Shown here: in pieces, positions 5,033 through 55,804 of the stretch | Position numbering within the stretch: position 1 is the first letter of the stretch | Layout of the letters: every line of letters begins with the position of its first letter | IMG/VR virus record: IMGVR_UViG_3300045303_000084 | Location: 1-60,237 of that record | Reading direction: 5' to 3' (one strand) | Length of the DNA: 60,237 nucleotides | DNA from: a virus | Lineage: Duplodnaviria; Caudoviricetes | Translations under genes and position numbers: made by a program | The notes under the pieces: generated by a model | Seen by the model: the letters and a program-made list of their open reading frames with translations, nothing else | Told to the model about the DNA's origin: nothing | The model's database searches: none

Positions 5033-5056
5033 ATGGATATCCCGACTCATGAGCGG
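5033..5056 (+). pseudogene. Remnant N-terminus (MDIPTHER) of the gene now starting at 5682
   Basis: SD AGGAGA + ATG; resembles MADLVSHQE at 5682; interrupted by the antisense HNH cassette. Confidence 0.5.
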
Positions 5057-5587
5057 TTACGGCAATGGGCGATTAGCACTACGTTGCCGCATGTAGGCGC
5101 GCATGTAGCAGCGACGGCAGAAACCACGTCCCCAATGCGGCAGATCAGTTGTCTCGCATTCGATGCAGCGGTCATGCGAAACCGACCACGCTCCGGTTCT
5201 TCGAGCGACACTTGGCGCTCGCAGCGTCTTCGGATCGGCCTTGTCCCACACGATGTGGCAGTGTCCACACAGCCAGCGTACTTCTAGGGGCTTGGAATAA
5301 TCATGATGCGCAGCGGTGATCCGGCGATTCTCACAACCGCACTCTTCGCACGCCGATGCGCGCGTCAGAATGCCACGGGAGATCGCTTGAGCAACGGCAT
5401 TCGCGGCGCGCTGGATCATCCTGTGGCGCTCGATATTGGCCGCCTGCCAACGAAGGGTCTGCTCGCGTTTCCATTCCGGATGAGTTTCTGCGTAGCGCTT
5501 GACGGCTTCGCGGCTCTTTGCGGGGTTCTCAGATCGCCACTTACGCATGTCAGCGGCATGCTTTGCTCGGGTAGACTCATCACGCAT
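5057..5587 (-). CDS. HNH-type (Zn-finger) homing endonuclease
   Basis: CEECG...AAHHDYSKPLEVRWLCGHCH motif plus C-terminal CIEC...CRRC; SD GGAG. Confidence 0.8.
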   Translation of the reverse strand: MRDESTRAKHAADMRKWRSENPAKSREAVKRYAETHPEWKREQTLRWQAANIERHRMIQRAANAVAQAISRGILTRASACEECGCENRRITAAHHDYSKPLEVRWLCGHCHIVWDKADPKTLRAPSVARRTGAWSVSHDRCIECETTDLPHWGRGFCRRCYMRAYMRQRSANRPLP

Positions 5588-5666
5588 CGGGTGCTCCAAT
5601 CACTCGGTGTGCTCTGGCCCGACATTGCTCTAACAATGTCGGGCCTTTGTGCGTCAATTATACCAT
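5588..5666 (-). promoter_or_regulatory. Endonuclease-cassette leader (extended -10 + hairpin + SD)
   Basis: Minus strand TGGTATAAT-tgacGCACAAA-GGCCCGACATTG-ttagag-CAATGTCGGGCC-agagCACACC...GGAG-ATG. Confidence 0.75.
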
Positions 5667-5681
5667 CTGGTAGGAGTTGAT

Positions 5682-6050
5682 ATGGCTGACCTTGTTTCGC
5701 ATCAGGAGATAGAAGAAGCTTACAAGCAGGCAAAAGACGTGACGGCGAAACTGCCAGAAAGCACCGAGAGCCGGCGTGCGCAGGAACATCTCGGCCTGGC
5801 AGAGAAGTACGTGCATGAGGCACGGGACCGCGCGAAGGTTGATCGCGTGACAGAGCCTGAGCTTGACGCCTCCGTCGAGATGAAGATCCGCTACGACGCG
5901 GTTGTCTCTGCGCTCATCAAGCCGGAGTATCTGTCTGCCGCATGCCCGACGCACGGCAGTTCGTGCAGGGCGAACAACGCTCAGGTGTCCGGCTGGCCGT
6001 CCGCGTCGCCGGCGGCGCGGTGGACGTGGAACGACGGATCTGCACCGTGA
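5682..6050 (+). CDS. Hypothetical protein
   Basis: SD AGGAG, MADLVSHQEIEE start. Confidence 0.6.
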   Translation: MADLVSHQEIEEAYKQAKDVTAKLPESTESRRAQEHLGLAEKYVHEARDRAKVDRVTEPELDASVEMKIRYDAVVSALIKPEYLSAACPTHGSSCRANNAQVSGWPSASPAARWTWNDGSAP

Positions 6051-6061
6051 GGGGGGAAACG

Positions 6062-6442
6062 ATGATGCGCTGGTTTCGTATCGCTATGGTCGCGTTGGCG
6101 ATCAGCGCGCCGGGCTTCGGATTCGTGTCCACGGTGTCGGCGCAGAGCCTTATCGGCTCAAGCAAGGAATGCGGGACGTACGAGTTCGACGGCGACCTGG
6201 TGAAGGGCCGGACGGACGGCATGGTCGTTCGTGTCGATCACACCGAAGGCTGCTACCGCTACAAGTTCATGACCATCGTCGGCACCGGATTGACCGAGGG
6301 CTACGGCTACCCGGGCCAGCAGGCGATGTGCGAGAAGGCCGGTCGTGAGGCGGCAGTCGGCCACTTCCGCTACTACCGGGGTATGGAGATCGATCCGAGT
6401 TCGGTCAAGGTTTCCTGTACCAACTATGCGGGGCCTGACTGA
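6062..6442 (+). CDS. Secreted protein with signal peptide
   Basis: MMRWFRIAMVALAISAPGFGFVSTVSA-Q signal-like N-terminus; 4 Cys. Confidence 0.6.
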   Translation: MMRWFRIAMVALAISAPGFGFVSTVSAQSLIGSSKECGTYEFDGDLVKGRTDGMVVRVDHTEGCYRYKFMTIVGTGLTEGYGYPGQQAMCEKAGREAAVGHFRYYRGMEIDPSSVKVSCTNYAGPD

Positions 6443-6822
6443 TGGACCCGCTTGTCAAGAACATCCTCCTGTATACGCTCTCGATCCTGGCCGGCGCGCT
6501 GGCTGCCGGCCTCGGCGTGCTCGCGACGCAGCTCGCGGGTGCCGATCCAATCAACTGGCGCCCCGTGATCGCCGCTGCTATCGGCCCGATCGTGGCGGGT
6601 CTGGCGGCGTCCAGGTTGCCACGGCCAGAGGGCGCAGCGCTCGCGGCCCAGATTGACACGCTCAAGGATCAGGGCATCGCTCGGCGTGACATGGTCGTGG
6701 TGACGCAGGAGGAAGCCGTCAAAGGGATGCAGAACGCGCCGCCCCCGGATGGGGACAGGATGCCGCAGGATGCACCGCCATCCCGTCCGCGACCGCGACC
6801 ACGGCTGGAGGATGCGTCCTAA
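6442..6822 (+). CDS. Holin-like membrane protein (2 TM)
   Basis: Two hydrophobic helices separated by DPINWR; charged, Pro-rich tail. Confidence 0.55.
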   Translation: MDPLVKNILLYTLSILAGALAAGLGVLATQLAGADPINWRPVIAAAIGPIVAGLAASRLPRPEGAALAAQIDTLKDQGIARRDMVVVTQEEAVKGMQNAPPPDGDRMPQDAPPSRPRPRPRLEDAS

Positions 6823-7196
6823 TGCCATCCGCTGCACCACTGAACGCCGCCATCGTCCGCTCGGTGCTCACCATGCGCTGTACGGTGTGGGCGCGCACGG
6901 CCAATACCGGGCCATACAACAGCGCCGTGAAGACGGGGCTCGCCTGCCGGCTCGACACCGTCAACGTGCAGCCGGCCCGGACGGGTACGGAGCGCGCCGA
7001 CCTGGCGGCGCTGCGGGTGTTCATGTGGGACACCACGTATGCGATGCCAGCGTCGGGCGTACAGATCGAAGTCACGTCGCCTGCGCACTATGCCGGCCAG
7101 CGCTGGAACATTCAGGCGGGCACGCAGAAGCCGGCGATTCCGCCGGGTTTTGATGGGCCGATCGCCATAGAGGCCGACGTGCGGAGGGCGAGCTGA
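6822..7196 (+). CDS. Head closure/stopper protein
   Basis: 124 aa beta-rich ORF in the neck position, coupled to both neighbours. Confidence 0.55.
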   Translation: MPSAAPLNAAIVRSVLTMRCTVWARTANTGPYNSAVKTGLACRLDTVNVQPARTGTERADLAALRVFMWDTTYAMPASGVQIEVTSPAHYAGQRWNIQAGTQKPAIPPGFDGPIAIEADVRRAS

Positions 7197-7585
7197 TGGT
7201 CGCCGTCTCGATCAAAATGACCGGCTATGTTCAGGTGCTCGACAAAGTCAAGTTGTTGGGCGCTGGCGCCGAGGCTGTGAACGGTCCGATTGCCTCGTTT
7301 GGCTCGCGTCTAAGTTACGCTCGGTTCATCGAGACGGGGCGTTCCAGCCGACCGCAAGTTCGCCGCGCCGGTCCCGCGCGGATGTTCGAGTTGGGCGTAG
7401 CCGAGGCGGCGAAGCAAGCGCCTGCCCTCCTGGCACCGGCTATCCCGCGAGGTCCCGCCGCTGTGGGAGCCGCAAAAAGGCGCATTCGAGACATTGGGCT
7501 AGAAAGGATTCGGGCACTTACTCCCGTACGTAGCGGGAAGCTTAGGGCAAGTGTCAGCGAGTTGAATCGGCCGGGAATTGGGTGA
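7196..7585 (+). CDS. Tail completion/neck protein (HK97 gp10-like)
   Basis: YARFIETG and TPVRSGKLRAS motifs typical of gp10-like proteins. Confidence 0.6.
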   Translation: MVAVSIKMTGYVQVLDKVKLLGAGAEAVNGPIASFGSRLSYARFIETGRSSRPQVRRAGPARMFELGVAEAAKQAPALLAPAIPRGPAAVGAAKRRIRDIGLERIRALTPVRSGKLRASVSELNRPGIG

Positions 7586-7590
7586 TGGCG

Positions 7591-8265
7591 TCACGTCCAT
7601 CCCTTGCCGGTCACGATCAGGGAGATCGTCGCTTGCGACACGTTGAACTGTGCAGCAAGAGCCTTCTGGGAGACGGTGCCGTTCGCGTACAGCGTACGGA
7701 TCAGGATGGCTTGATCGCGATTCAGTCGGGCGTGGGGCCGGCGGGTTCGTACATCTGGATCGGCAGTGTACCCACCGCCTCTACCGATCAGGCCACGCAT
7801 CTTGGCTGCCATGTCGGCCTGATTGGCAGCGATCGCTCCGAGCCAGAGATGACCGTGCCGTTCGTACTCGATGCCATTGACAACATAGACGCCGGTGTCG
7901 TCGTGACGGACGCATCGTCGCACATCGCAAGTATGGCCGACGATCAGCCCAAGTGGTGGCGTCAATCCAGTTGCACGATACCATGCGATGTGATGGGCGA
8001 GAACATCGCCGGCCCGATAGTCTGCGGGATTGGGCAAGACACCGTAACCCTTCGCTTGCGTCCTACCCGGCCAGAGACGGCATTCTCCGTCAACGATCAG
8101 ACTCTCCCAGACTGTTGGACCGCTCCATCGACCACGCCCGCGAGAGTCGAGATAGCAGGCGCGGTTGTGAAATCGACCACGGCCAATGCTGATCGCATAA
8201 GCGCTGGCGAGGAATCCATTCCCGCACCATTCGCAGACGCGGGGGATGGTACCCTTGTTGGGCAT
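7591..8265 (-). CDS. HNH homing endonuclease (Zn-ribbon + HNH_3-type + C-terminal HTH)
   Basis: CEWCG N-terminus, CRLWPG..GYG..AHHIAW..VGHTCDVRRCV..HLWLG..NQADM, C-terminal SQKALAAQFNVSQATIS. Confidence 0.85.
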   Translation of the reverse strand: MPNKGTIPRVCEWCGNGFLASAYAISIGRGRFHNRACYLDSRGRGRWSGPTVWESLIVDGECRLWPGRTQAKGYGVLPNPADYRAGDVLAHHIAWYRATGLTPPLGLIVGHTCDVRRCVRHDDTGVYVVNGIEYERHGHLWLGAIAANQADMAAKMRGLIGRGGGYTADPDVRTRRPHARLNRDQAILIRTLYANGTVSQKALAAQFNVSQATISLIVTGKGWT

Positions 8266-8344
8266 CAGGCTCACCCCCTGGTGTCAGGCCCCGGGTGTTG
8301 CAAGCACGCCGGGGTCACTTCGTGTCTAGATTTTACCATGCCTG
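8234..8344. repeat. 111-bp exact direct repeat, copy 1 (cassette leader + first codons)
   Basis: Identical to 11652..11762 on base-by-base comparison. Confidence 0.95.
8266..8340 (-). promoter_or_regulatory. Endonuclease-cassette leader
   Basis: TGGTAAAAT-ctagACACGAAGTG-aCCCCGGCGTG-cttgcaa-CACCCGGGG-ccTGACACC-AGGGGG..ATG. Confidence 0.8.
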
Positions 8345-8365
8345 CGCATCTGGTCGGGGGCTCTG

Positions 8366-8827
8366 ATGTCTGGCTTTGACGTGGAAGCCGCACTCAATGG
8401 TCTGAAAGACCTTGTCAGCACGATTCCATCAATCGAGTCGTGTCAGATCGGCGCGCCCGAATCACTGTCGAACCGAATCAGCGCGTGGGTCGTCGTCGGC
8501 GATCCGGGGGAAATCGGATCGCGCGTTCAGGGGGTCTACGAGTTAGACCTGTCGCTGATCGTGTTTTTTGCATATGTCGTGGAAGGCCAGGAATCCGCCA
8601 GCGAAGCACAGTTGGGGGATTACATCACCGAACTCGTCCGACGATTGATCAAAAACCGAGCCGGCGCCGTCGACGGAGTCAGCAGAAACCTCAACGGTTC
8701 GGTAGACATTCTCGGCCTGCCTCAAGCAGCAGCAGGACCGGCGGATTACGCGGTCTATGCCGGCGCCGAGGGGAGGACATATCCTGTCGGCGTCAGAGTC
8801 GTGCAGCGCGAAAACCTTGGAGTCTAG
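8366..8827 (+). CDS. Tail terminator protein
   Basis: 153 aa, position between gp10-like gene and tail tube. Confidence 0.6.
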   Translation: MSGFDVEAALNGLKDLVSTIPSIESCQIGAPESLSNRISAWVVVGDPGEIGSRVQGVYELDLSLIVFFAYVVEGQESASEAQLGDYITELVRRLIKNRAGAVDGVSRNLNGSVDILGLPQAAAGPADYAVYAGAEGRTYPVGVRVVQRENLGV

Positions 8828-8836
8828 GAGGACATC

Positions 8837-9145
8837 ATGCCCCGCGAGAAGTTGATGGCGAACTACCTTGGCGAGATGGGCGAGCATTACATGGGCATCC
8901 CCGCCTGTGACCTGTACGAAACGCAGTGGAACGCGCTCTCCGACGAGCAGAAGGCGCTCGTTGGCGAGTCGGCGTTCTACCGCGTCCGTCCGGCCGCTGA
9001 GGAGGACGTAGAGGCCGCTGCCAAGCACGTCGAGAAGGCTGAGCCGGTCAACCCGATGGCTGAGCAGGCCAAGGCTGAGATGCCGGCGCCGCCTGCGCCG
9101 AAGGACGAGCCGAAGCCGGCGCCGAAGGCCGAGGCGAAGAAGTAA
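8837..9145 (+). CDS. Hypothetical protein
   Basis: SD GGAGG; GIPACDL...W motif; Pro/Ala/Lys tail. Confidence 0.6.
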   Translation: MPREKLMANYLGEMGEHYMGIPACDLYETQWNALSDEQKALVGESAFYRVRPAAEEDVEAAAKHVEKAEPVNPMAEQAKAEMPAPPAPKDEPKPAPKAEAKK

Positions 9146-9378
9146 TGCAGACGATCAACCCCGATCTGTGTACGACGTGCGCTCAATGTGGGCTCGCGCT
9201 TCCTGACGGGTGGCGCGGCCTTGTCGTGTCGCTCGCAGGCGCCCCCGAAGCCCCGTTGTGCTCTGATGACTGCGCCGAACAGATGCTCCGAGGGCATGGC
9301 GCCGCTACGTGGTGGCCTGACGGTCGGATATTCATGTTTTCGCCGTCCAAAGGCATCCGCGAGGAAGTCTTCGCCTGA
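9145..9378 (+). CDS. Small Cys-rich (Zn-binding) protein
   Basis: CAQCG...CSDDC; TAATG coupling. Confidence 0.5.
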   Translation: MQTINPDLCTTCAQCGLALPDGWRGLVVSLAGAPEAPLCSDDCAEQMLRGHGAATWWPDGRIFMFSPSKGIREEVFA

Positions 9379-9554
9379 TGCCAGTGCAGGAGCACCGCCG
9401 CGTCATCAACCAGCAGGGTATACTTGTCCCTGAGCACGACCGCGTGTTCGCTGAGATGTTGCGGCGACTCCTGCTTAAAGCGGTGGCAATGGTCGAAGAT
9501 CGGTACGGGCTCGAACGGGTCAACCTCACCCGTACCTCGAAGACGCTTCGATAA
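9378..9554 (+). CDS. Small hypothetical protein (58 aa; below ORF-track cutoff)
   Basis: TGATG-coupled; MPVQEHRRVINQQGILVPEHDRVFAEMLRRLLLKAVAMVEDRYGLERVNLTRTSKTLR. Confidence 0.5.
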   Translation: MPVQEHRRVINQQGILVPEHDRVFAEMLRRLLLKAVAMVEDRYGLERVNLTRTSKTLR

Positions 9555-9649
9555 CTGCATAGGCCACTACTCCCGATCACCGGGGGTACCGCCCGAACCC
9601 GTGAGTCACGCGCCCAACAGCGCCCGCTCGCTAACAAGCGAGCGTCGCT

Positions 9650-10981
9650 ATGGCCGCGAACGATCAAGGGCAGCTCTGGTCGGGCACACTTCAGATCGGC
9701 AAAGAGACGGTGGCCGGAACCGCCGTCGCCGCAACGCGGAAGCTCTACACCCGTGAGCCCGCGCTGACGGTTGAGCGCGATCCGCGCGTACACCGCTTCG
9801 CCACCACAACCCGCGACAACGTCCGCGCCTACACCAATGGCCCGGTCATGGCCGGCGGTTCGCTCTCGATGCCGATGAGCGCGGACGAAATCATCGAGAT
9901 GCTGCTGATTGGCGTTCAGGGGTCGGTCACGCCGACCACGCCAGCGGGTGACACGCTGGGACGGCTGTGGACGTTCAAGCCGGCCGGCGCCCTCGACTCG
10001 GCCACGCTCGAATGGGCAGATGGCGCGCGAACGTGGGTCGGTCCCGGTTTCAAGGGTAACTCGCTCACGATCACGGGTGCTGCCAACGAGGCGAATGACC
10101 TGTCCATTGATCTGTTCGGCAACGATGTCGTAGCAGGCTCACTGACGGGCGCGCTCTCCGAACGGGTGCCGACGTTCTTTGAGGGCTGGCAGACGCGGAT
10201 GTACATCGATCCGTTCACGGGCACGCCGGGGACGACCCCGATTCCGGGCGTTCTGCGCAACTGGACCGTCACGATCAACAACAACCTGGCGCGCGTCTAC
10301 ACCGCCGACCTCACGCTGGCGGCGAACCGCATCACGTCTGGCGAGTTGGACATGACGGCGCAGTTGACCTTTGACGCCTACCAGTCGCGCTCGTTGACCG
10401 AGTTCAACAACTGGGCGGCTGGCACACAGCGGATGGTCCGTCTTGAATTCATGGGGCCGGCTGACGAGATCGAGGCCGGTGCCAACGAGGTGCAGACCCT
10501 CACCGCGACTGGCACCCCGACCGGCGGATCGGCCACCGTCAACATTCTCGGCCAGGATGCCGTGATCGTGTTCAACAGCACGAATGCCCAGGCCCAGACA
10601 TCGATCAATGCGGCGCTTGCCGTGCTCGGGACCGGGCATACCGTCACCGTGACGGGTGGCCCCTGGCCGGGTACTGCGCTGACGGTCACGTTCACCGGCA
10701 GTCAGGTCAGCGGACGTGACATCGCGCAGGCGACGCTGACCACCAACGCCTTTACTGGCGGCACCACACCGGGCGTCACGTTCGGCACGACCACGCCAGG
10801 GCGCAACGGTCGCAAGTACGTGGCGATCGACTTGCCCGGCGCGTGGACTGCCGTGAACCTCGGCGGCTCGGCGGATGGTGTGCGGACGTACGAATTTTCC
10901 CTGCAACCAATTTATCAGACCACGCTGGCGTCAATGGGGCAGATCCTCTGCCACAACGCGCGGACGACGGCGTACGCCTAA
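9650..10981 (+). CDS. Major tail tube protein with inserted Ig-like domain
   Basis: Thr/Gly-rich 443 aa, LQIGKETVAGTAVAAT tube N-terminus, internal NEVQTLTATGTPTGG module. Confidence 0.75.
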   Translation: MAANDQGQLWSGTLQIGKETVAGTAVAATRKLYTREPALTVERDPRVHRFATTTRDNVRAYTNGPVMAGGSLSMPMSADEIIEMLLIGVQGSVTPTTPAGDTLGRLWTFKPAGALDSATLEWADGARTWVGPGFKGNSLTITGAANEANDLSIDLFGNDVVAGSLTGALSERVPTFFEGWQTRMYIDPFTGTPGTTPIPGVLRNWTVTINNNLARVYTADLTLAANRITSGELDMTAQLTFDAYQSRSLTEFNNWAAGTQRMVRLEFMGPADEIEAGANEVQTLTATGTPTGGSATVNILGQDAVIVFNSTNAQAQTSINAALAVLGTGHTVTVTGGPWPGTALTVTFTGSQVSGRDIAQATLTTNAFTGGTTPGVTFGTTTPGRNGRKYVAIDLPGAWTAVNLGGSADGVRTYEFSLQPIYQTTLASMGQILCHNARTTAYA

Positions 10982-10987
10982 GCATTC

Positions 10988-11017
10988 GGCCCGGGGTCAC
11001 TGACCCCGGGCCTTTCT
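10988..11017 (+). terminator. Intrinsic terminator after tail tube
   Basis: GGCCCGGGGTCA-c-TGACCCCGGGCC followed by TTTCT. Confidence 0.7.
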
Positions 11018-11035
11018 CGGAGGCTCAGCGTGACA

Positions 11036-11683
11036 TCAATCGACAGCAAAGGGCAGCAGTCGTTCCCGCGCGGCGCGGGCGACTTCGGCGGCCTCATGCT
11101 CCGATGCGAACACGCCGAGGTAGTGATTGACTCCCGCACTCTTGACGTACGCCATCCATTTCTGAGTCTTCTTGTGCCACGACACGCCACGGTGCGCAGA
11201 CGACGTGGCGTGGTAACTAGGTTTGTTCTGCGCGTTAGCACCTGTCGCCTTCCTATGAACACGCAGATTCGTTCGGCGGCAGTTCAGACGGTTCCGATCG
11301 ATATGGTCGACCTCCATCCCGTCGCCTTCGGTCAGTCCACAGAGATACCGATGCAGACGGATGCGGTGGTCGCGCCCGTCAATGCGTTTTGTCATGACCG
11401 CGTATCCCTTGCTCAGATGCCAGCGGTACTGACCAACGTCCTCGACGTCGTCGGCATCCACGATAGCGTTCGCGCGGACCATCCCGTGGCGATCGAAAAG
11501 CGGTACGTAGGCCGTGGTGCCATCGGCACTCAGGAGGGCACCGGACGGTGGACGACGATGAGCAAGGCTACGGCAAACGTTGGAGCAGTACAGCGCGCGT
11601 CCAACGTTGACTTGCCCGACCAGTGCCAAGAAATCGGCACCGCATTGCTGACAGACGCGGGGGATGGTACCCTTGTTGGGCAT
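11036..11683 (-). CDS. HNH-AP2 homing endonuclease with N-terminal Zn ribbon
   Basis: RLHRYL..EVDHIDRNRLNCRRTNLR HNH; SSAHRGVSWHKKTQKWMAY..YLGVF.SEHEAA AP2 domain. Confidence 0.9.
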   Translation of the reverse strand: MPNKGTIPRVCQQCGADFLALVGQVNVGRALYCSNVCRSLAHRRPPSGALLSADGTTAYVPLFDRHGMVRANAIVDADDVEDVGQYRWHLSKGYAVMTKRIDGRDHRIRLHRYLCGLTEGDGMEVDHIDRNRLNCRRTNLRVHRKATGANAQNKPSYHATSSAHRGVSWHKKTQKWMAYVKSAGVNHYLGVFASEHEAAEVARAARERLLPFAVD

Positions 11684-11762
11684 CAGGCTCACCCCCTGGT
11701 GTCAGGCCCCGGGTGTTGCAAGCACGCCGGGGTCACTTCGTGTCTAGATTTTACCATGCCTG
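11652..11762. repeat. 111-bp exact direct repeat, copy 2 (contains cassette leader 11684..11758)
   Basis: Identical to 8234..8344. Confidence 0.95.
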
Positions 11763-11782
11763 ACCAGATCAGAGAGGACGCC

Positions 11783-12226
11783 ATGAGCATAGATATTGGC
11801 CCCCCGGGGTATCAGCGAGCGAATGGAACTGCGGTGCCATCAGACGTGTCCGACCCACGCGGAAAACGCATAGCTAATAGGTGCCCCTGGCTCGATCTGC
11901 CGGAGCCGTTCGACAACCTGCGCGTCCGTTGTTGGCTTGACTATCCGCAGGACATCGCGGAGATGCTGACGGCCGAACCGGACGAGACGCCGGAGCAGGC
12001 GTCTGCACGGGTGATGGAGTTCCTGAAGGGGGTCATCCTGCAGCACGACGGCTGGGAGGCTGACGACAACGAGGGGCCGCTCCAGCAGCCCGATACTGAT
12101 GACTTTTGGCGACGCATCCCGACGCCGCTCGGCCGTGCGATCTCGGAGCGGTTCTTCGAGGAGTTGCAGGGAAACGCATCCCGCGCCTCACGCCGCAGGA
12201 AGTTCAAGACCTCTCGACGGCGCTGA
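11783..12226 (+). CDS. Tail assembly chaperone (gpG-like)
   Basis: SD GAGGA, between tube and tape measure, slippery site near its 3' end. Confidence 0.75.
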   Translation: MSIDIGPPGYQRANGTAVPSDVSDPRGKRIANRCPWLDLPEPFDNLRVRCWLDYPQDIAEMLTAEPDETPEQASARVMEFLKGVILQHDGWEADDNEGPLQQPDTDDFWRRIPTPLGRAISERFFEELQGNASRASRRRKFKTSRRR

Positions 12227-12408
12227 AGGCGCGGGATAGCAGGAGTTTCAAACCACCGTGGCCTTGGATCAAGCGGCAGATCGCGCAGCGCTGGAACTGT
12301 CCGCCGATGGCGGTCGATGCCGCGCCGTGGTTCGAAGTCGCCAACGAGTTGGACTTCATGAATCTGGAGGCCGAGGTGGCGCGGTGGAAGCAGGACAACG
12401 GGCGCTAA
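12169..12408 (+). CDS. -1 frameshift extension of tail chaperone (gpGT-like); slippery heptamer G GGA AAC at 12169..12175
   Basis: X XXY YYZ heptamer in the chaperone frame; -1 frame is open to 12408 (IAQRWNCPPMAVD..W). Confidence 0.8.
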   Translation, partial: GKRIPRLTPQEVQDLSTALKARDSRSFKPPWPWIKRQIAQRWNCPPMAVDAAPWFEVANELDFMNLEAEVARWKQDNGR

Positions 12409-12815
12409 ACCCGCTTGAGACGGTAGAAGCCGACGAACTGGCCGTATGGGTCGACGGTGATGACCTGCACGAAACCCGGCTCTGCTGGTTTGATGCCGAG
12501 GGTGTAGGCGTTGTCCAGGTAGCCGACAGCCGCATCAGGTTTGGACCCACTGGCGATGACGCCGCCGCCCGGCAGTCGATCAGCGACCGTGTACAGCGCC
12601 AGGTGCCGGCCGTAGGCGTTGTCCCACAGCAGCGTGGTGCCACCACACGGGTAGACCTGCACGCGCATCGGGCCGTCCGTGCCGATGTAGATCCCAGCCA
12701 TGTCCTCGGTGTTGAGCAGTCCGGGCGCACACGGGGCGGGTTGAGCGTGGGCGGCTCCCGGAGTCAGTGTCAGCAGAACGGCCACCACAAGCGCACCAGC
12801 GGCGATTTTCAGCAT
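12405..12815 (-). CDS. Secreted protein, moron-like antisense insert
   Basis: MLKIAAGALVVAVLLTLTPGAAHA-Q signal peptide; strong SD GGAGGAGG; TGTAGAAT -10-like box upstream. Confidence 0.65.
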   Translation of the reverse strand: MLKIAAGALVVAVLLTLTPGAAHAQPAPCAPGLLNTEDMAGIYIGTDGPMRVQVYPCGGTTLLWDNAYGRHLALYTVADRLPGGGVIASGSKPDAAVGYLDNAYTLGIKPAEPGFVQVITVDPYGQFVGFYRLKRV

Positions 12816-12870
12816 GTCTCTCTCCTCCTCCCAGGAATGACGCTCCATTCTACAGAAATGGTTCCGTCCT

Positions 12871-27252: not shown

Positions 27253-27317
27253 CTGAGGGTGCCTCCTCGGTGGTGCTGCCCCGCTCCCGGTTGCATCGGG
27301 AGCGGGGCGCTTTGGTG

Positions 27318-41025: not shown

Positions 41026-41298
41026 ATGCCAGCGTGTAGGGGTTGCGGAGCGGCGGTGACCTTCGTCCTGACGAAGAACGGCAAGCACATGCCGACCGAT
41101 CCGGACGGGAAAAGCCACTTCGCCTCGTGCCCGCAGGTCAAGACGTCCAGGCGCCCGGCGCTGCCGAAGGACACGTGCCACACCTGCGGGTCACGGAACG
41201 TGTTGCAGGCGCCTGGTATGGGTCCGCATGCGGCTGGTTTGCGTTGCCTCGACTGTCGTGTGTTTCGCTGGCTCCGCGCGAGTGATGTGACGGGATGA
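41026..41298 (+). CDS. Zn-binding hypothetical protein
   Basis: CRGCGA.V.F..T.NGK.MP.D...SHFASCP. Confidence 0.6.
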   Translation: MPACRGCGAAVTFVLTKNGKHMPTDPDGKSHFASCPQVKTSRRPALPKDTCHTCGSRNVLQAPGMGPHAAGLRCLDCRVFRWLRASDVTG

Positions 41299-46938: not shown

Positions 46939-47514
46939 GTGACAGCAAATGACAGCGCTTTCAACTGGTCCCGGCGGACTGAGCGAGCAGCCCTCCTGGT
47001 TGCTCAGGATGAGCAGACGGACACGGCCATTGCCGCATCAGTTGGCGTCAGCCAGGTCACCATTGAGCGATGGAAGCGGCACCCCGAGTTTGCAGGCCGT
47101 GTCCAAGAGCATCGCGACCTCTGGCGAGAGCAGATCGAGGCCAAAGGTATCGCGGATCGCCAGAACCGTGTCGACGCGCTCAATGACCGCTGGCATCGGA
47201 TGCAGCAGGTGATTGAGGAGCGGGCGTCTGACCAAACGACAGCGCATGTCGCTGGCGGGTCGACTGGCTTGATCGTCCGTGATGTCAAGGGCGTTGGTAA
47301 GGGTGACGACTTTCAGCTCATTGACATCTACAGCGTCGATACAGGGTTACTGAGGGAACTGCGCGAGCACGAGAAGCAGGCCGCGCAAGAGCTGGGGGAA
47401 TGGTCCGAGAAGCGGGAGATCAGCGGCCCCGGCGGCGATCCGATCGAAGTCCGCGCTCGTGACTACCGAGAAGGGCTCGCGCCGTTCTTGCCGCCGGCGG
47501 ACGACGATGCCTAG
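46939..47514 (+). CDS. terS: Terminase small subunit
   Basis: IAASVGVSQVTIERWKRHPEF HTH; DTGLLRELREHEKQAAQELGEW..K.EISGPGG.PI; precedes TerL. Confidence 0.8.
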   Translation: MTANDSAFNWSRRTERAALLVAQDEQTDTAIAASVGVSQVTIERWKRHPEFAGRVQEHRDLWREQIEAKGIADRQNRVDALNDRWHRMQQVIEERASDQTTAHVAGGSTGLIVRDVKGVGKGDDFQLIDIYSVDTGLLRELREHEKQAAQELGEWSEKREISGPGGDPIEVRARDYREGLAPFLPPADDDA

Positions 47515-48781
47515 CATCGTGCTCGATCGGGTGCCGATGCTCCGTCCCGATCAGGCCATCATTGCCCGTCATCCGGCCAAGCGCAAGGCTGTTTGCATGG
47601 GGCGCCGATGGGGCAAGACTGTCCTCGGTCTCGTGTTGGTGCTCTCAGCGTTGCTGCAAGGGCTCAGGGTAGCCTGGTTGGTCCCCACCTATCGCAACTC
47701 TAATCCGCTCTGGCGAGCCGTTGAGTCGGCGTTGGCGCCGCTCCGGAAAGCTGGGCGGGCGAAGCTCAATCGCTCGGAGCGGTACGTCGAGTTGTGGAAT
47801 GGCGGATTCCTGGGTGTCTACACCGCCGATAACCCTGATGCCATGCGCGGCGAATGGTTTGACCTCGTCGTGACGGACGAAGCCTCGCGGGTGCCCGAAG
47901 CCGTGATTGAGGAAGTGGTTGAGCCCACGTTAGCCGATGCCGATGGCGATCACGTCGCGATCAGTACGCCGTTCGGCAAGAACTGGTTTTATCGGCTCTG
48001 GCAGCGCGGCCGAGAGGACGGCGAGTACACCGCCGCGTTCCGGGCGCCATCGTCGGCCAACCCAATGCCGACGATCCGTAAGGCGTACGACCGGGCGCGG
48101 ATGATCTTTGGTGAGGACTCGAACACCTTCCGTCAGGAGTGGGATGCGGAGTTCGTGGACAGCGGCGCCGTCGTCTGGCTTCGGGAGTGGGTCACGCGCT
48201 ACAGCCTGGATGACGACGACATGGACCGTCGCGTTATCGCTCGCATGCTGTCGTATGACACGGCGAACAAGGATAAGAACACCAACGCTTACAGCGCGTG
48301 CGCTGTGATTGAACTGCTCTCGGACTACCGCGCTCGCTTGCGTCACGTTTGGCGCGAACGGCTCTTGATGCCAAAACTGGTGGCCCGAGTCCAGGGTGAT
48401 GAGACAACGACCGGCGATATCGTCCGCTGGAATCACGATGGCAAACTCCAGGCCGTCGTGATCGAGGATCACGCCTCCGGCACTGGGCTCTATCAGACCA
48501 TGATGGATGCTGGCTCGCCGGCGCTTCAGAACATGCTTGTTGCGTTCCGTCCGACCGGCAGCAAGGATGAGCGCTTTGGACAGGCCGGCGTCTGGGTCAA
48601 GAACGGCGCATTCCTGGTGCCGAGTCCGTCCGATCAGACGCGCTGGCTCCATACCTGGGAGTCGGAAATCTTCGAGGAAGATGAGTTCAAGGATCAGCGA
48701 GACGCCACGGCACAGGGCATCCTGTACTGGGAACACTTGCTGGCCGAGGGCCACCGCGCCAGAATGGGCCACGCCGCATGA
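47507..48781 (+). CDS. terL: Terminase large subunit
   Basis: GRRWGKT Walker A, VVTDEA Walker B, ISTPFG, FRQEWDAEF, YDTA nuclease, IEDHASG, DQRDA. Confidence 0.9.
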   Translation: MPSIVLDRVPMLRPDQAIIARHPAKRKAVCMGRRWGKTVLGLVLVLSALLQGLRVAWLVPTYRNSNPLWRAVESALAPLRKAGRAKLNRSERYVELWNGGFLGVYTADNPDAMRGEWFDLVVTDEASRVPEAVIEEVVEPTLADADGDHVAISTPFGKNWFYRLWQRGREDGEYTAAFRAPSSANPMPTIRKAYDRARMIFGEDSNTFRQEWDAEFVDSGAVVWLREWVTRYSLDDDDMDRRVIARMLSYDTANKDKNTNAYSACAVIELLSDYRARLRHVWRERLLMPKLVARVQGDETTTGDIVRWNHDGKLQAVVIEDHASGTGLYQTMMDAGSPALQNMLVAFRPTGSKDERFGQAGVWVKNGAFLVPSPSDQTRWLHTWESEIFEEDEFKDQRDATAQGILYWEHLLAEGHRARMGHAA

Positions 48782-49036: not shown

Positions 49037-49115
49037 TGGTAAAATTGTCGCAGTAATGCCGGGCGCTGTTGTAGCAGCCCCGGCCCGAACTAGCCTGTTG
49101 TGGAGGCCAGTTGCG
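49037..49115 (+). promoter_or_regulatory. Endonuclease-cassette leader (sense orientation, more diverged)
   Basis: TGGTAAAAT...GCCGGGCGCTG-ttgtag-CAGCCCCGGC...GGAGG..GTG. Confidence 0.65.
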
Positions 49116-49763
49116 GTGAGTGTACCACCGACTGGGCGAGCGTGCGTTGCTTGCGGTGAATGGAAGTCAGCCGAGCACTTCTACGGACATAAGCGGGGTA
49201 TCAACGGACTCACAGGTCGTTGTAAGTCCTGCTACCGAGTATACCAGCAGGCTTGGCGTGAAAATAACGCCGCGCTGATGCGAGAGCGCACAAGAGCATA
49301 CAACCGGCGACATCGAGCCAAAAATCCTCGTTTGGCTGTTCAGCGGGCTCAGGCATACCGAGCCGCGAACTACGTTACGGTGATGGCTCGCGAAGCTCGT
49401 TTCCGAGAAGAGAATCGGGAGCGTTTGTTAGCTCGCCGCCGCGAGTTGAGGCAGCAGGCGCGGGAACGCTACACCGCGTATCACTACGCCTGGATCGCTC
49501 GCCGGAAGGCGAATGGCGGATCGTTTACGTCGGAAGAATGGGCGAGGCTTTGCAGCTTCTACGGCGGAAGGTGTCTCGCCTGTGGCCGTGTCGCGAAACT
49601 GACGGTTGACCATGTTGTGCCGGTATCGCGTGGCGGCTCGGACGACATCAGCAATCTTCAACCGCTCTGTGGCCCGTGCAATTCCCGAAAGGGGAACCGG
49701 CGGATTATCGACTACCGTCCGTTCTCGTCACTGCTCGACGGGAGTTGTATGTGTCTGTCCTGA
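49116..49763 (+). CDS. HNH homing endonuclease
   Basis: CVACGEWK...F...CKSC; CLACG..LTVDHVVPVSRGGSDDISNLQPLCGPCNSRKG. Confidence 0.85.
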   Translation: MSVPPTGRACVACGEWKSAEHFYGHKRGINGLTGRCKSCYRVYQQAWRENNAALMRERTRAYNRRHRAKNPRLAVQRAQAYRAANYVTVMAREARFREENRERLLARRRELRQQARERYTAYHYAWIARRKANGGSFTSEEWARLCSFYGGRCLACGRVAKLTVDHVVPVSRGGSDDISNLQPLCGPCNSRKGNRRIIDYRPFSSLLDGSCMCLS

Positions 49764-52632: not shown

Positions 52633-53364
52633 GTGGCTGACTTCACGACGATGCGTTTTGAACTGAATACTAACTCCAACGCTTCGCCAACATGGACGAC
52701 AGTGCCGGCGTCTGGCTCGGGTACTGGTCAGGAGTTGCGGTTCTCTGATGTCAGCACGGCGGGCTCTACCGCTTCTGCGTCGTGGCCATTTGTAACGCGC
52801 CCGACTTCGGGCACCGCCGGCGTTGACTACCTCTACGTCTTCACGGCTGACACGACCTCGCTGGGGTCTATTGGTGGCGGCACATCAACGCCGGCCGCGT
52901 TCTCGAACGCAAACTATCTGGAGTTCCGGCTCTGGTGGGACAACGTCGGGACGTTCGCCAGCGCGCCGATCTACACGGCGTACCCGACGACTGCCCACGG
53001 CTCGGTGACGCGCGGCGACGGCTCGCTACTCGGCGGCCATGCCACGGATACCGGTGGTACGGCGCGCTCCTACCTCAAGGGCGCAATGTTCGGCCGGGTG
53101 GTATCGGCTGGCGCACCGGCCGCCGCTGTCGGCTCAGCCCCGACCGTGACCGATGGGACGACTGGAGCGGTTAGCCCGACCGCCGGCGCGAACTGGAGCA
53201 CGTACCAGGGGCTTCAAGGCGATAACGATTACCTTCAATTCCCATCGACCCCGGCAGCGACCACGCAGGATCAGCTAAATCTGATGATCCGTCTTTTCAC
53301 TGGTGCGAATATGAGTCCAGGCACTCACACGCCAGTGGTGAGCGTGAAGTACACCTGGACGTAG
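52633..53364 (+). CDS. Putative virion structural protein (Thr/Gly/Ser-rich, beta)
   Basis: SD GGAGGT; ends VKYTWT, similar to the end of 56898..57347 (VTFTWTE). Confidence 0.55.
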   Translation: MADFTTMRFELNTNSNASPTWTTVPASGSGTGQELRFSDVSTAGSTASASWPFVTRPTSGTAGVDYLYVFTADTTSLGSIGGGTSTPAAFSNANYLEFRLWWDNVGTFASAPIYTAYPTTAHGSVTRGDGSLLGGHATDTGGTARSYLKGAMFGRVVSAGAPAAAVGSAPTVTDGTTGAVSPTAGANWSTYQGLQGDNDYLQFPSTPAATTQDQLNLMIRLFTGANMSPGTHTPVVSVKYTWT

Positions 53365-53374
53365 TTTGCAAAGA

Positions 53375-54121
53375 TTACACAGATGGCTTTTGAGGCAGTC
53401 CGCGATGATTGAGCGCGCGAATCTCAGCGATAAGCGGTACGCGAGCGGCGAGGGTTTCGTCGCTGACCCATCGTGGGGCTTTGCCTCCGCGCGTGTATCC
53501 GAGGTCGCTGAGAGCCAGCACGATCTCTGCTTGCCGATGCTTGATCTTCAAGTACGGCAGGAGTCTTCGGCAGAGACGGACTGCTTCGGTGCCACCCGCA
53601 TACCAGTTCTGCACTGGCTTGTGGATACCCGGGCGAACGGCTCTCGGAGCGGTCAGGTATCCGCCGAACGTCTTTGCTACCCACTGCATAACGGGCTCGT
53701 AGGTATTCGCCATCATCAGTCGGCAGTGCATGCTCTCGTTCCCGGTGCTCGGGCTCGTCGTCATGCGGACAGTAATGGTGCCCTCGCCATCGATCAGGCC
53801 GGCGAAGTAGATGAGATCGCGCTCGTCGTCTGGAATGATGACCGGGACGTTTTCTGCGGCGCTCTTGCACTCGAAGCTACAGAACCGTTGCGGCTTGGCC
53901 GCGTTCGGTGCGTGCGGCCGGAACTCGGCGCCGCATTGCTCGCAGGGCATGACGACGGTGTGTCCTGTCCCCTTGAGCGGCGACGGACGGCCCTTGCTGC
54001 CGACACCACGGCATGTCGCGGAGCAGTAGCGGACGGCTCGTTGCTTGACGCGGAACGGCTCAACGAGGAACTCGGAGCCGCAGACCTCGCATGTGCGGGG
54101 CATGGTACGCTTTTGGGGCAT
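53375..54121 (-). CDS. LAGLIDADG homing endonuclease with two N-terminal Zn ribbons
   Basis: YFAGLIDGEGTI motif; LLPYLKIKHRQA...IRALN; CEVCG..YCS.TC and CEQCG..FCSFEC. Confidence 0.9.
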   Translation of the reverse strand: MPQKRTMPRTCEVCGSEFLVEPFRVKQRAVRYCSATCRGVGSKGRPSPLKGTGHTVVMPCEQCGAEFRPHAPNAAKPQRFCSFECKSAAENVPVIIPDDERDLIYFAGLIDGEGTITVRMTTSPSTGNESMHCRLMMANTYEPVMQWVAKTFGGYLTAPRAVRPGIHKPVQNWYAGGTEAVRLCRRLLPYLKIKHRQAEIVLALSDLGYTRGGKAPRWVSDETLAARVPLIAEIRALNHRGLPQKPSV

Positions 54122-54200
54122 CAGATCCTCCAACGGTCTGGTGTCACGCCCCGGGCTGTTTCTACCAGCGCCGGGGCTTCATCGTGCCTGAAGTATACCG
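54122..54200 (-). promoter_or_regulatory. Endonuclease-cassette leader
   Basis: CGGTATACT-tcagGCACGAtgaa-GCCCCGGCGCTG-gtagaaa-CAGCCCGGGGC-gTGACACC...GGAGG..ATG. Confidence 0.8.
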
Positions 54201-54220
54201 TCTACCAGGAGGGATGACCG

Positions 54221-54475
54221 ATGCCAAAGAAAGACGATGCGCCCGAGCTGACCGTCTGCGACGGCTGCGGGATGGAGCGCGACGACGTGAACGGCGACGG
54301 CTACTGCCCGGCCTGTGCTGAGCGCCGCGCCGATGATCCACAGGTCACGGTGCAGGGTCGCGCGCTGACCGTCTCCGAACTGGAGATGCAGGCCGAGGAC
54401 GACGAGCACCTGGCAGCAGCGCTCAAAGGCGATAGCGTGCAGGATCAGATCAAGGTGGCAAAGGCGGATCGGTGA
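54221..54475 (+). CDS. Small Zn-binding protein
   Basis: SD AGGAGG; CDGCG...YCPAC. Confidence 0.55.
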   Translation: MPKKDDAPELTVCDGCGMERDDVNGDGYCPACAERRADDPQVTVQGRALTVSELEMQAEDDEHLAAALKGDSVQDQIKVAKADR

Positions 54476-54690
54476 ACGAGATGGGTCAGTGTCGGGATTG
54501 CCGCTGGTGGGAAGTTTCCGCGCAGGAGCAGGATAGCGGTAAGCGATTCTGTGGCCTGGCTACCAGTGACGATGGCGTGGCGCTCCATACGGAAACACCG
54601 TTTTGGGCAGTAGCAACAGATGGCGGCGAGGCGGTCGTCTTTACGAGTCCAGACTTCGGCTGCGTCCAGTTCGAGAGGAAAGAATCGTGA
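54472..54690 (+). CDS. Small Cys-rich protein
   Basis: CRDCRWW...C...TSPDFGCVQF. Confidence 0.55.
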   Translation: MNEMGQCRDCRWWEVSAQEQDSGKRFCGLATSDDGVALHTETPFWAVATDGGEAVVFTSPDFGCVQFERKES

Positions 54691-54770
54691 GCGCCGTTGC
54701 CGATGTCCTCAAGACGATGGACCCGGCCGCCCTGCGCGCCCGTGTGACAGGTCGGCCGTGGTGGCGGGTG
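54687..54770 (+). pseudogene. Remnant N-terminus of the gene now starting at 55379
   Basis: MSAVADVLKTMDPAALRARVTGRPWWRV aligns with MNVARMLIPLEMHARLKGRSYWRM. Confidence 0.65.
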
Positions 54771-55301
54771 TCAGTCATCATCGCCAACGACATCGACGTA
54801 GCGATGCTCGAATTTGGGTCCATAGCGCCAAGTTTGCCGGTGTCGCTCCGGGTCTGTCCGGGCGAAGTGTCGATCTCCCGTAGGCAAGCGTCCTCGCTCA
54901 GAAGCGTCAGCCATGTTGTCAGCCTGGGTGCCGAGCGAGAGATGCCGAATGTTGCAACACGGGGGATTGTCGCACGCATGCCGGACCTTCAATCCGGGAG
55001 GAATCGGACCGTACGACAACTCCCAAGCCACTCGGTGAGCCTTAGCAGGCCGGCTATTGACGCTGACCTGTCCGTAGCCTCGCCCATCGGTCGCCCCGAT
55101 CCATACGTGGCACTCATTGGGCGTTCCGAGTCGCACCTTGTCCCAGAACCGATCTGCAATAGGGACTCGGCGGCTCGAATGGAGACTGTCGCGGCAGCCC
55201 AGACTGCAAACCTTGCCTCGATTTCCACGAATTCTCGACGGTGTCGTGGTGAAGGTAGATCCGCAGTATGCGCAGTCTCGCGTGATAGGATTTGGACGCA
55301 T
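54771..55301 (-). CDS. HNH homing endonuclease (Zn-ribbon + HNH_3-type)
   Basis: CAYCG..VCSLGC; RFWDKV..CHVWIG..GYG..KAHRVAW..VRHACDNPPCCNIRHLSLGTQADNMAD. Confidence 0.9.
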   Translation of the reverse strand: MRPNPITRDCAYCGSTFTTTPSRIRGNRGKVCSLGCRDSLHSSRRVPIADRFWDKVRLGTPNECHVWIGATDGRGYGQVSVNSRPAKAHRVAWELSYGPIPPGLKVRHACDNPPCCNIRHLSLGTQADNMADASERGRLPTGDRHFARTDPERHRQTWRYGPKFEHRYVDVVGDDD

Positions 55302-55381
55302 CGGAAGTACATCCCTTCTGGTGCCACGTCCCCGGCAGTTCGCGCTGCGCGGGGGCTCTCTTGTGCCGGAATTATACCATG
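55302..55381 (-). promoter_or_regulatory. Endonuclease-cassette leader
   Basis: TGGTATAAT-tccgGCACAAgagag-CCCCCGCGCAG-cgcgaa-CTGCCGGGG-acgTGGCACC-agaAGGGA..ATG. Confidence 0.8.
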
Positions 55382-55804
55382 AATGTCGCGCGTATGCTGA
55401 TTCCACTCGAAATGCACGCTCGTCTGAAGGGGCGTTCCTATTGGCGTATGCGCTTCATCGACGGTCGCACGATTGATGAGCGTGACGTGGACTGGAGTCT
55501 CGCGCCGCAACGAGGGAGGATGGCCCTGCAACTGGTCTGCCCGGATGGTCAAATTGCTCAGGTCGGGAATACACAAGACTCGACGGGAAGACTTTTCCAA
55601 CTGAAAGCCGGCGCACTGACCGGCTCGACGCGGAGCACTGACGCGCACCTGATCGGGATCGTGCATGGCACGGACGGGCAGGCGACGGTCGCTGCCTGGG
55701 AGTACGGCCCGAAGCGGCTCGTGACATTTGAGGACAACGTGTGGAATGTTCGATACCGGGGCATCGGGCGCCTGAATTTCGATGTTCTCGGGATCAGGGG
55801 GTAA
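55379..55804 (+). CDS. Hypothetical protein
   Basis: ATG embedded in the cassette's -10 extension. Confidence 0.6.
   Translation: MNVARMLIPLEMHARLKGRSYWRMRFIDGRTIDERDVDWSLAPQRGRMALQLVCPDGQIAQVGNTQDSTGRLFQLKAGALTGSTRSTDAHLIGIVHGTDGQATVAAWEYGPKRLVTFEDNVWNVRYRGIGRLNFDVLGIRG

Follow-up and report, generated by a model that had tools for sequence, protein, structure and literature searches.

An apparently portable module with a predicted cis-antisense small RNA precedes the homing endonuclease genes of a soil phage

The regulation of free-standing homing endonuclease genes is largely unknown outside the T-even phages, and antisense control of such genes has barely been documented. The question is raised by an IMG/VR virus record, IMGVR_UViG_3300045303_000084, which we analysed over its whole length as one linear stretch of 60,237 bp (the window; estimated completeness 72%, GC content 59-66%). 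Seven nuclease genes lie in it, at 5057-5587, 7591-8265, 11036-11683, 22727-23257, 53375-54121 and 54771-55301 on the minus strand and at 49116-49763 on the plus strand, and each stands behind a copy of one short leader. A sequence-only reading had placed and oriented these genes, as we verified, and had taken the leader for the mark of an undescribed class of nuclease cassettes, whose structured 5' end would serve as an operator, a translational switch or a small RNA. What does the leader do, and why do unrelated genes share it? From sequence comparison we propose that it is probably a gene for a cis-antisense small RNA (sRNA) of ~65-70 nt, which faces the promoter of the nuclease mRNA and would restrain expression, and that the ~110-bp module is best explained as a portable unit that recombines onto unrelated mobile-element genes in Actinomycetota.

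On the mRNA strand, all seven nuclease genes are preceded by an extended -10 element, a GC-rich hairpin (P1), a (T)G(A/G)CACC box, a Shine-Dalgarno (SD) sequence and a start codon, exactly as the sequence-only reading had written them. The extended -10 is TGGTATAAT at 5657-5665, 23320-23328 and 55371-55379, TGGTAAAAT at 8330-8338, 11748-11756 and 49037-49045, and CGGTATACT at 54192-54200. Nine copies of its core, GGTAWAMT, lie in the window where 1.32 +/- 1.20 would be expected, and none of 100 shuffles has as many as nine; seven of the nine matches are the nuclease-gene promoters, and every TATAAT (three) and every TAAAAT (three) hexamer of the 60 kb falls in these promoters. The HNH genes at 33699 and 43775 do lack the module, both on inspection of the sequence and in a covariance-model search, which gave no match there. 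Nor does the hairpin prove to be an ordinary terminator, as had been considered: on the mRNA strand it sits downstream of the promoter and is followed by CGTGACACC, and a consensus terminator scan listed no cassette hairpin on either strand. Two other roles for the parts were rejected. P1 as a stabiliser of the mRNA 5' end does not fit the 8-12 unpaired nucleotides ahead of it, and the box as a sigma-54 -24 element (TGGCAC) has no TTGC at the right spacing, alternates with TGACAC and pairs with the start-codon region.

That last pairing belongs to a second helix, P2, in which [G/A]CACC of the box pairs with GAUGC of the start-codon region, with more pairs inward and the SD sequence enclosed. 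In the short form of the module, to which every window copy belongs, the start codon lies in the 3' strand of P2; in a long form found elsewhere, GCG or GCA replaces AUG in P2 and the open reading frame (ORF) starts ~100 nt further on. This enclosing helix, a -10 element on the opposite strand at +10..+15, better pairing on that strand and diverged versions of these features in the seventh copy are all additions to the earlier description.

To which strand, then, does the structure belong? We gathered 173 non-redundant hairpin+box sites and kept 99 with an A-rich tail, blind to P2. Read as mRNA, P2 in the 92 copies analysed gives 670 Watson-Crick pairs, 185 A.C, 2 G.U and 20 other combinations (347, 48, 2 and 20 at the inner positions only). 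Because A.C on one strand is G.U on the other, P2 is continuous in the antisense transcript only. RNAalifold in the antisense orientation (alignment A2) returned two hairpins with 19 pairs, counterparts of P1 and P2 that we call P1' and P2'. In this structure 96.8% of cells pair as antisense RNA against 84.9% of the same columns as mRNA, with 217 G.U wobbles against 12; the antisense figure compares with 87.7 +/- 0.4 in shuffles and with 41-56% in slid controls. Cells changed on both sides number 170 (49.9 +/- 6.8 in shuffles), nine pairs having such double-sided changes, and the covariation score is 0.386 against 0.211. None of 500 shuffles reached the observed pairing or score; the covariation, which the sequence-only reading had asked to see, is significant by this measure. 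Sequence varies throughout P2 and in the inner stem, yet pairing is kept; P1' and the junction are common to modules, whereas P2' differs.

Folding energies point the same way. The antisense strand is the more stable in seven of seven window modules folded (a candidate eighth module, described below, included), by 2.7-12.6 kcal/mol and with a clean two-hairpin fold, while the mRNA-strand folds of two modules are no better than shuffles (z -0.95 and +0.05). Among the three functions first suggested for the leader, a small RNA came nearest; structure acting in the mRNA leader was not borne out by the wobble counts, the seven folding energies and the opposite-strand -10.

This -10 is a TAnnnT hexamer, present on the opposite strand 6-8 nt beyond the foot of P2' in 83 of the 92 copies; any other offset has at most three. 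Among short-form copies, in which it falls within codons 4-6, 54 of 58 have it; among long-form copies, in which this position is non-coding, 29 of 34 do, and with the hexamer as frequent there, peptide conservation does not explain it. A G stands at -14 in 57 of the 83 copies that bear the hexamer. Each of the eight window modules has exactly one such hexamer: it occupies +10..+15 of the ORF in six cassettes, as it does in the candidate eighth, whereas the seventh has it at +3. The spacing from a -10 element to the transcription start is usually 6-7 nt, and the predicted antisense RNA would therefore begin at the first paired G of P2'. At its other end, the A-rich stretch 5' of the GC hairpin becomes a U-rich tail when read antisense: in 106 copies chosen regardless of tail, A (U in the antisense RNA) averages 3.49 over the 10 nt that adjoin P1, compared with 2.04 at 67 other hairpin+box sites.

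An observation on the encoded peptides belongs here. N-terminal peptides of the form M-P/R/H-x-K/D/N-G/R/P-T/I look conserved in the products of genes 7591, 11036, 53375, 54771 and 22727 and of many loci elsewhere. Since the underlying nucleotides, RSSTAYC, are equally conserved in non-coding context, the peptide motif appears to be an imprint of the opposite-strand promoter.

The window modules carry elements on both strands, and we give for each its position, the strand of its mRNA -10, the predicted sRNA, the opposite-strand -10, the score under R1 (a covariance model of the antisense RNA) and the folding energy of the antisense against the mRNA strand in kcal/mol. Module 1 (5572-5665; mRNA -10 minus) has a predicted sRNA at 5584-5653 (+) and TAGACT at 5572-5577 (+), with 21.9 bits (E 0.011) and -37.4 against -30.1. 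Module 2 (8234-8344; minus) has its sRNA at 8262-8324 (+) and TACCCT at 8250-8255 (+), with 47.1 bits and -31.4 against -22.0; module 3 (11652-11762; minus) is identical to it, with the sRNA at 11680-11742 (+), TACCCT at 11668-11673 (+) and again 47.1 bits. In module 4 (23242-23328; minus) the sRNA is predicted at 23254-23314 (+) and TACGAT stands at 23242-23247 (+) (48.5 bits; -35.0 against -25.2), in module 5 (54106-54200; minus) the sRNA at 54118-54186 (+) and TACGCT at 54106-54111 (+) (61.6 bits; -34.2 against -31.2), and in module 6 (55286-55379; minus) the sRNA at 55298-55365 (+) and TAGGAT at 55286-55291 (+) (70.8 bits; -34.9 against -22.3). R1 thus finds six of the seven cassettes, on the plus strand, opposite their genes.

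Module 7 (49037-49124) is diverged: its mRNA -10 is on the plus strand, its sRNA is predicted at ~49047-49112 (-) and TACACT stands at 49119-49124 (-), with -37.0 against -34.3. Only its hairpin at 49059-49083 scores under R1, at 10.3 bits. By eye it has a helix CUGGCCU/AGGCUAG and a GC hairpin, and no GGUGYCA junction. This plus-strand copy had been described as keeping only the -10, hairpin and SD; those parts are there, but "only" does not hold, since a helix and an opposite-strand -10 are present in diverged form. Two more GGTATACT matches lie outside the seven promoters, at 9417-9424 (+) and 49238-49245 (-), and the latter, on the opposite strand ~120 nt inside nuclease gene 49116-49763, could be a further antisense promoter.

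A candidate eighth module at 27237-27317 (+) probably stands before a gene that is not a nuclease. The model match is weak (11.1 bits, E 1.3), with TAAACT at 27237-27242, a two-hairpin RNA at 27249-27317 (+) and energies of -44.7 against -39.3; tail, hairpin, CACC, SD sequence and an ATG at 27252 are in place, and TAAACT lies on the opposite strand at the standard offset. The gene behind it, 26800-27252 (-), encodes 150 aa of no known family. The upstream gene ends at 27318, and for this reason the candidate has no private -10 on the mRNA strand. One other match (998-1065, minus; 21.6 bits, E 0.012) falls within ORF 704-1099, immediately ahead of the major head gene; a number of its pairs are broken, a start codon is missing, and we regard it as a chance match.

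The genes behind the seven modules are, as had been said, nucleases of several families: Pfam recognizes HNH_3 in three, HNH in one and LAGLIDADG_1 weakly in another, and PHROGs assigns endonuclease families to all seven products, those of genes 5057 and 22727 included. Gene 5057-5587 (-) encodes 176 aa of the phrog_2340 endonuclease family (E 2e-19), with an HNH-like CxxC...HH motif seen by eye and no Pfam match. Gene 7591-8265 (-) combines HNH_3 with a C-terminal helix-turn-helix (HTH) domain and gene 11036-11683 (-) combines HNH_3 with AP2 (both by Pfam and PHROGs), while the product of gene 22727-23257 (-) is HNH_3-like, falls in a PHROGs endonuclease family and is 40% identical to that of gene 7591 over 136 aa. 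Two N-terminal Zn ribbons and a LAGLIDADG-like body make up the product of gene 53375-54121 (-) (LAGLIDADG_1 at E 0.008, below the cut-off; phrog_5046 at E 2.6e-24), gene 54771-55301 (-) encodes HNH_3 (Pfam and PHROGs), and gene 49116-49763 (+), which has a GTG start and lies between the large terminase and the next head gene, encodes HNH (PF01844; PHROGs). An N-terminal Zn ribbon is common to five of the seven proteins.

That the module is a unit apart from the gene it precedes is clearest in modules 2 and 3. Their 111 bp (8234-8344 and 11652-11762) are 100% identical and span both -10 elements, with 79 nt upstream of the ATG and 32 nt from the ATG onward, whereas identity in the flanks falls to 28-43%. 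Past residue 11 the proteins part, one continuing as an HNH_3+HTH body and the other as HNH_3+AP2.

How far does the module extend beyond this phage? Pattern scans of IMG/VR gave 71 loci for promoter plus hairpin, about chance level by a rough estimate, and at least 119 stretches for hairpin plus box without the promoter; a scan of species-representative bacterial genomes gave at least 120 stretches. Roughly half of the 71 loci are low-GC terminators or an unrelated repeat, and the counts that follow use only loci positive under R1 at E<=0.001 (E-values being rough). Among the viral loci listed by the pattern scans 68 of 190 are positive, with 55 distinct RNA sequences. Positive genomes number 44 of 121 in the order of Conexibacter arvalis, 22 of 151 in Actinomycetota (the centre genome and the unpublished G270 included) and 0 of 151 in a high-GC control phylum, that of an Acetobacteraceae metagenome-assembled genome. 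The 80 titled bacterial rows among the pattern matches listed comprise 59 from Solirubrobacterales, Conexibacter or other Thermoleophilia, 8 Streptomyces, 1 Thermobifida, 8 unclassified Actinomycetota and 4 from other phyla, and two of these last four were tried with the model and gave no match. Five genomes scanned in full had 1-7 pattern matches each. One genome of the Conexibacter order, G003, has eight model matches, and many copies retrieved by the patterns share the design of the window modules.

Behind the 55 distinct viral modules, 25 ORFs encode a Pfam nuclease domain (HNH, HNH_3/His-Me, GIY-YIG in one locus, L076, and endonuclease VII in another, L135), 14 are cut by a short flank, two modules have no ORF, and 14 ORFs are of other kinds: integrase-like (L097), Rep (L125), serine recombinase (L024), AP2, HTH and nine without a family. 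A signal-peptide-like N-terminus occurs in one family-less ORF (L130) and in the cut ORFs of L166, L168 and L177. The modules of bacterial genomes precede tyrosine integrases (L211, L223, L241, L317), a serine recombinase (L265), XRE regulators (L196, L218, L249, L258) and many small unknown proteins; among the matches listed, none in the bacterial genomes scanned precedes a nuclease. Nucleases therefore dominate in phage contigs, yet the module is a general accessory of mobile-element genes. Its suggestion that the leader rather than the nuclease defines the family stands for the module as a conserved unit, given 111 identical bp on two nuclease bodies, and is not supported for a class specific to homing endonucleases, given the integrases, recombinases, Rep, XRE and secreted proteins. 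Module orientation tracks the module's own gene and not its neighbours: module 7 is co-oriented with its neighbours, and the bacterial copies occur in many contexts.

Three groups of bacterial copies deserve description. In long-form copies from Solirubrobacterales (L202, L215, L254, L273, L277 and others), a second hairpin, GGCACC(C)...GGGUGCC, and a U-rich tail follow the module by eye, and then a conserved GGAGCCUCC..AGGAGGAACCGAUG region before a gene starting MST..IPD..VLAAIDRAERH; to the eye this layout resembles countertranscript-driven attenuation. A Solirubrobacterales-order genome holds seven model matches in ~62-71 kb (G014:C1:2357942-2420397; L343-L346), six of them on one strand, most preceding paralogous small genes (MRRDRPT...MAITINREQRDA) and one a 422-aa integrase-like ORF. 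In Streptomyces (L207, L210, L217, L224, L263), the module precedes a conserved protein of ~220-330 aa (M-Q/R-I-H/Y-R-T..PTRAFS..N.LL.D..ISW) with no Pfam family, probably the product of a gene of an integrative element.

In the mechanism we propose, each cassette would have two facing promoters ~85-90 bp apart. Transcription of the nuclease mRNA would be driven by the extended -10, with the A of GCAC(G/A)A as the probable first base; that of the antisense RNA, on the opposite strand, would be driven by the TAnnnT element in codons 4-6 and begin with the G that faces the C just past the start codon. P2' would form the 5' hairpin of this RNA, in which the stem can pair with the (T)GRCACC box plus the start codon, and the loop with the SD sequence; after a junction of 2-3 nt would come P1', a bulged GC hairpin that with its moderately U-rich tail is the likely terminator. 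The antisense RNA, complementary to the whole 5' untranslated region (UTR) and the start codon, would pair with the mRNA and, by analogy with IS10 RNA-OUT and plasmid countertranscripts, block ribosome binding and/or trigger duplex cleavage, with convergent transcription adding interference. The A.C mismatches may weaken the mRNA-strand helices and so leave the ribosome-binding site usable when no antisense RNA is present. A potentially toxic gene for DNA cutting or recombination would thus be kept low in a copy-number-dependent manner. Six of the predicted sRNAs run with the late operon, and late read-through may also be antisense to the nuclease mRNAs.

Several points weigh against this proposal. 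Transcription, the ends of the RNA and repression are predictions from sequence; a search for sequencing runs that contain 53300-55500 listed no RNA run, the one run listed being a DNA run that may be the source sample. Module 7 has diverged, and the score of the eighth is only 11 bits; the terminator scan flags no P1' hairpin and the U-tail is weak, and a sigma-70 scan flags neither promoter, although that scan requires a -35 element, which these promoters lack. On the side of the data, the 5' end of the aligned RNAs was set by an anchor motif, which 92 of the 99 copies have, and the 99 were filtered for an A-rich tail (a filter removed in the 106-copy tail count); the patterns used for retrieval had already set parts of the box and of P1, and the copies are related by descent, so shuffle tests overstate their independence. 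The P1 and P2 helices also form, more weakly, in the mRNA, and a dual role in both RNAs is possible. Lastly, the predicted RNA overlaps the SD sequence and start codon in the seven window cassettes, without exception, and in 58 of the 92 copies aligned, but not in the 34 of the long form; as the long-form RNA misses the start codon of the downstream ORF, simple occlusion of the ribosome-binding site is not the whole function.

The helices that form in the mRNA are what an alternative closest to the sequence-only reading would build on, namely that the structure acts there as a 5'-UTR translational switch or operator, P1 with a helix sequestering SD and AUG, possibly bound by the Zn ribbon of the nuclease for autoregulation. 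A shorter P2 does fold in the mRNA with the start codon in its 3' strand, five of seven proteins have the ribbon, and hairpins that sequester ribosome-binding sites are known for free-standing endonuclease genes of T-even phages. We nevertheless consider this unlikely: the mismatches of the mRNA reading become wobbles in the antisense one (185 A.C against 2 G.U in P2; 217 against 12 G.U in A2), the mRNA strand is less stable in all seven modules folded and folds no better than shuffles in two of them, the conserved opposite-strand -10 is left with no role, integrases, recombinases and secreted proteins without a Zn ribbon are served as well, and the long form keeps the helix with GCG instead of AUG. 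It is also conceivable that there is no discrete sRNA, that P1 is a two-way terminator or insulator against the late operon, and that P2 and the hexamer are by-products of conserved N-terminal peptides and ribosome-binding sites. Such an insulator would suit the six of seven genes that are antisense to the structural operon, whose late transcripts would read a strong GC hairpin with an A-rich side, but it would have to accommodate a hexamer as frequent in non-coding (29/34) as in coding (54/58) copies, a P2 that covaries with many compensatory changes, an orientation that follows the module's own gene and a terminator scan that flags P1 on neither strand; we judge it quite improbable.

Two further alternatives concern what the conserved parts are for. 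The junction and box sequences recur in all copies and the phage encodes an XRE-type repressor beside its integrase (31894-32436), as expected if an inverted repeat with GACAC/GGCAC boxes were a DNA operator through which a phage or host repressor switches all module genes together. A sequence-specific DNA site would not be expected to let its inner stem and P2 vary while pairing is kept, however, and the asymmetry between G.U and A.C is meaningless for double-stranded DNA, which makes this the least probable of the explanations weighed here. The other alternative accepts the antisense RNA and moves its action: mainly in trans or otherwise, through cross-immunity of co-resident elements or attenuation of a downstream terminator, and not through cis occlusion of the ribosome-binding site. 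P1' and the junction are shared between modules while P2' is not, and the long-form RNA is ~100 nt ahead of the ORF, with what by eye is a second GGCACC...GGUGCC hairpin and a U-rich tail behind it; since the RNA covers SD and start codon in every window copy and in 58 of 92 aligned copies, we hold this to be a very slim prospect.

The sRNA proposed here matched no entry in the collections searched. Rfam 15, in which HEARO and LAGLIDADG-linked motifs are included, gave only a tRNA at E<=1 in the whole window and again only a tRNA in sixteen bacterial loci, and at E<=10 the best match in a 1.3-kb piece was ybhL (21.4 bits, gathering score 50), in keeping with the claim that the element is undescribed there; a full-text literature search, supplements left aside, turned up no account of it. 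Free-standing homing endonuclease genes of T-even phages (seg/mob, I-TevI) have their own promoters and hairpins that sequester the ribosome-binding site. The window genes likewise lie between essential genes with private promoters and structured initiation regions that would limit expression, but control in the T-even case works by mRNA hairpin and promoter timing, whereas the modules described here have a conserved second promoter and a pairing pattern that points to the opposite strand. HEARO and the IscB omega-RNA are also structured RNAs next to an HNH-family gene; the module differs in having no Rfam match, in a size of ~70 nt, in being antisense to the 5' UTR and in serving small homing-type nucleases, not IscB.

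Cis-antisense control offers closer parallels. In IS10/Tn10, RNA-OUT controls the transposase through its target RNA-IN, and the module as predicted shares with that pair facing promoters, a short and stably folded antisense RNA whose promoter lies in the first codons of a selfish-element gene, complementarity to the 5' end, ribosome-binding site and start codon, and an expected copy-number-dependent repression. It differs in having no relation by sequence or Rfam, in an overlap of the whole ~65-nt UTR, in its two hairpins, the second terminator-like, and in serving many unrelated genes of Actinomycetota phages and integrated elements where IS10 has a single transposase. Plasmid countertranscript RNAs (ctRNAs), such as CopA/CopT of R1 and those of the pGA1, pT181 and pIP501 type, are small structured antisense RNAs against the leader of a replication gene, with pairing initiated at loops, and one module copy does precede a Rep gene (L125); unlike them, the module matches no Rfam ctRNA (E<=1, and E<=10 on the 1.3-kb piece) and stands mostly on nucleases, integrases and regulators. 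A type I toxin-antitoxin system was rejected, as the targets are proteins of 150-420 aa from many families and not small hydrophobic peptides.

Two documented phage RNAs come nearer in setting. The nearest documented case in the phylum is ncRv12659 of the actinobacterial prophage PhiRv2 (PMC3861185): the mapped start of this sRNA lies 62 nt downstream of, and opposite to, the transcription start of the integrase gene, its promoter fragment contains the first 13 integrase codons, and the ~100-170-nt RNA runs across attR into host DNA, the authors reading the promoter as driving genes of the circular phage. In layout it matches the module, whose two predicted starts lie ~65-70 nt apart. In cyanophage S-PM2, the antisense RNA CfrI neighbours the homing endonuclease gene F-CphI and maps to the stretch that separates it from psbA (Millard 2010, as cited in the review PMC12197685). 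It too ties an antisense RNA to a phage homing-endonuclease locus, but phage, host and position differ and, as that citing account presents it, CfrI is not a recurring portable module.

Taken together, the copies most likely represent a new and widespread family within a known class of regulators, cis-acting antisense sRNAs, in the form of a portable two-promoter module that is not nuclease-specific. More tentatively, the module may be a governor, two facing -10-only promoters and a two-hairpin antisense sRNA, which, through recombination, has come to stand before selfish genes of unrelated kinds in Actinomycetota phages and integrated elements (those for Rep proteins, regulators, recombinases of the tyrosine and serine types, moron-like secreted proteins and homing nucleases with at least four different folds) and gives each a private, orthogonal post-transcriptional brake, seven or eight side by side in one phage. 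What would make the brakes private and orthogonal is the variability of P2' against a common terminator hairpin and junction, and since sRNAs and late operon run the same way, silencing may be tied to late transcription. If the module acts as proposed, a recurrent regulatory RNA family absent from Rfam exists in a poorly studied soil clade (Thermoleophilia, with other Actinomycetota), and it would be a clear case of a regulatory cassette moving independently of the genes it controls. Conserved N-terminal peptides of the type M-P/Q/R-x-K-P/R/G-T would be explained as the imprint of a promoter on the other strand, mobile-element genes would gain an annotation marker, and high-GC Gram-positive hosts a set of compact, naturally orthogonal antisense regulators.

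As for the phage itself, PHROGs annotation indicates a temperate siphovirus, with a scaffold protein (67-675), a major head protein (1114-2172), a tape measure (12871-17973) and other tail proteins, a tyrosine integrase (30656-31888, minus) with the XRE-type repressor-like gene next to it (31894-32436, minus), a primase (41295-43625) and a large terminase (47459-48781). The integrase gene adjoins a tRNA-Ser: ARAGORN places a full tRNA-Ser(GCT) gene at 30606-30693 (+), overlapping the 3' end of the integrase gene, and Rfam sees the same gene as a weak tRNA-Sec match (36.9 bits). This overlap is probably the attP region. From where similar modules occur, and not from a match to this phage, we infer a host in Thermoleophilia; the seven-module cluster of the Solirubrobacterales-order genome does not identify it, sharing no protein with the window at E<=1e-5.

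In the public phage collection, megablast with the tape-measure gene, tblastn with ORF 9650-10981 and blastn with a leader turned up no close relative. A related-locus search with the minor tail protein gave none, and one with the capsid protein gave ten loci at 37-44% identity, too distant for a comparison of insertion sites; the 142 kb around them hold no module. In two distant relatives (L332, L334), the capsid and tape-measure genes are ~2.9 kb apart, against ~10.7 kb in the window (1114-12871), where the added DNA comprises three nuclease cassettes and several family-less ORFs, for example 9650-10981.

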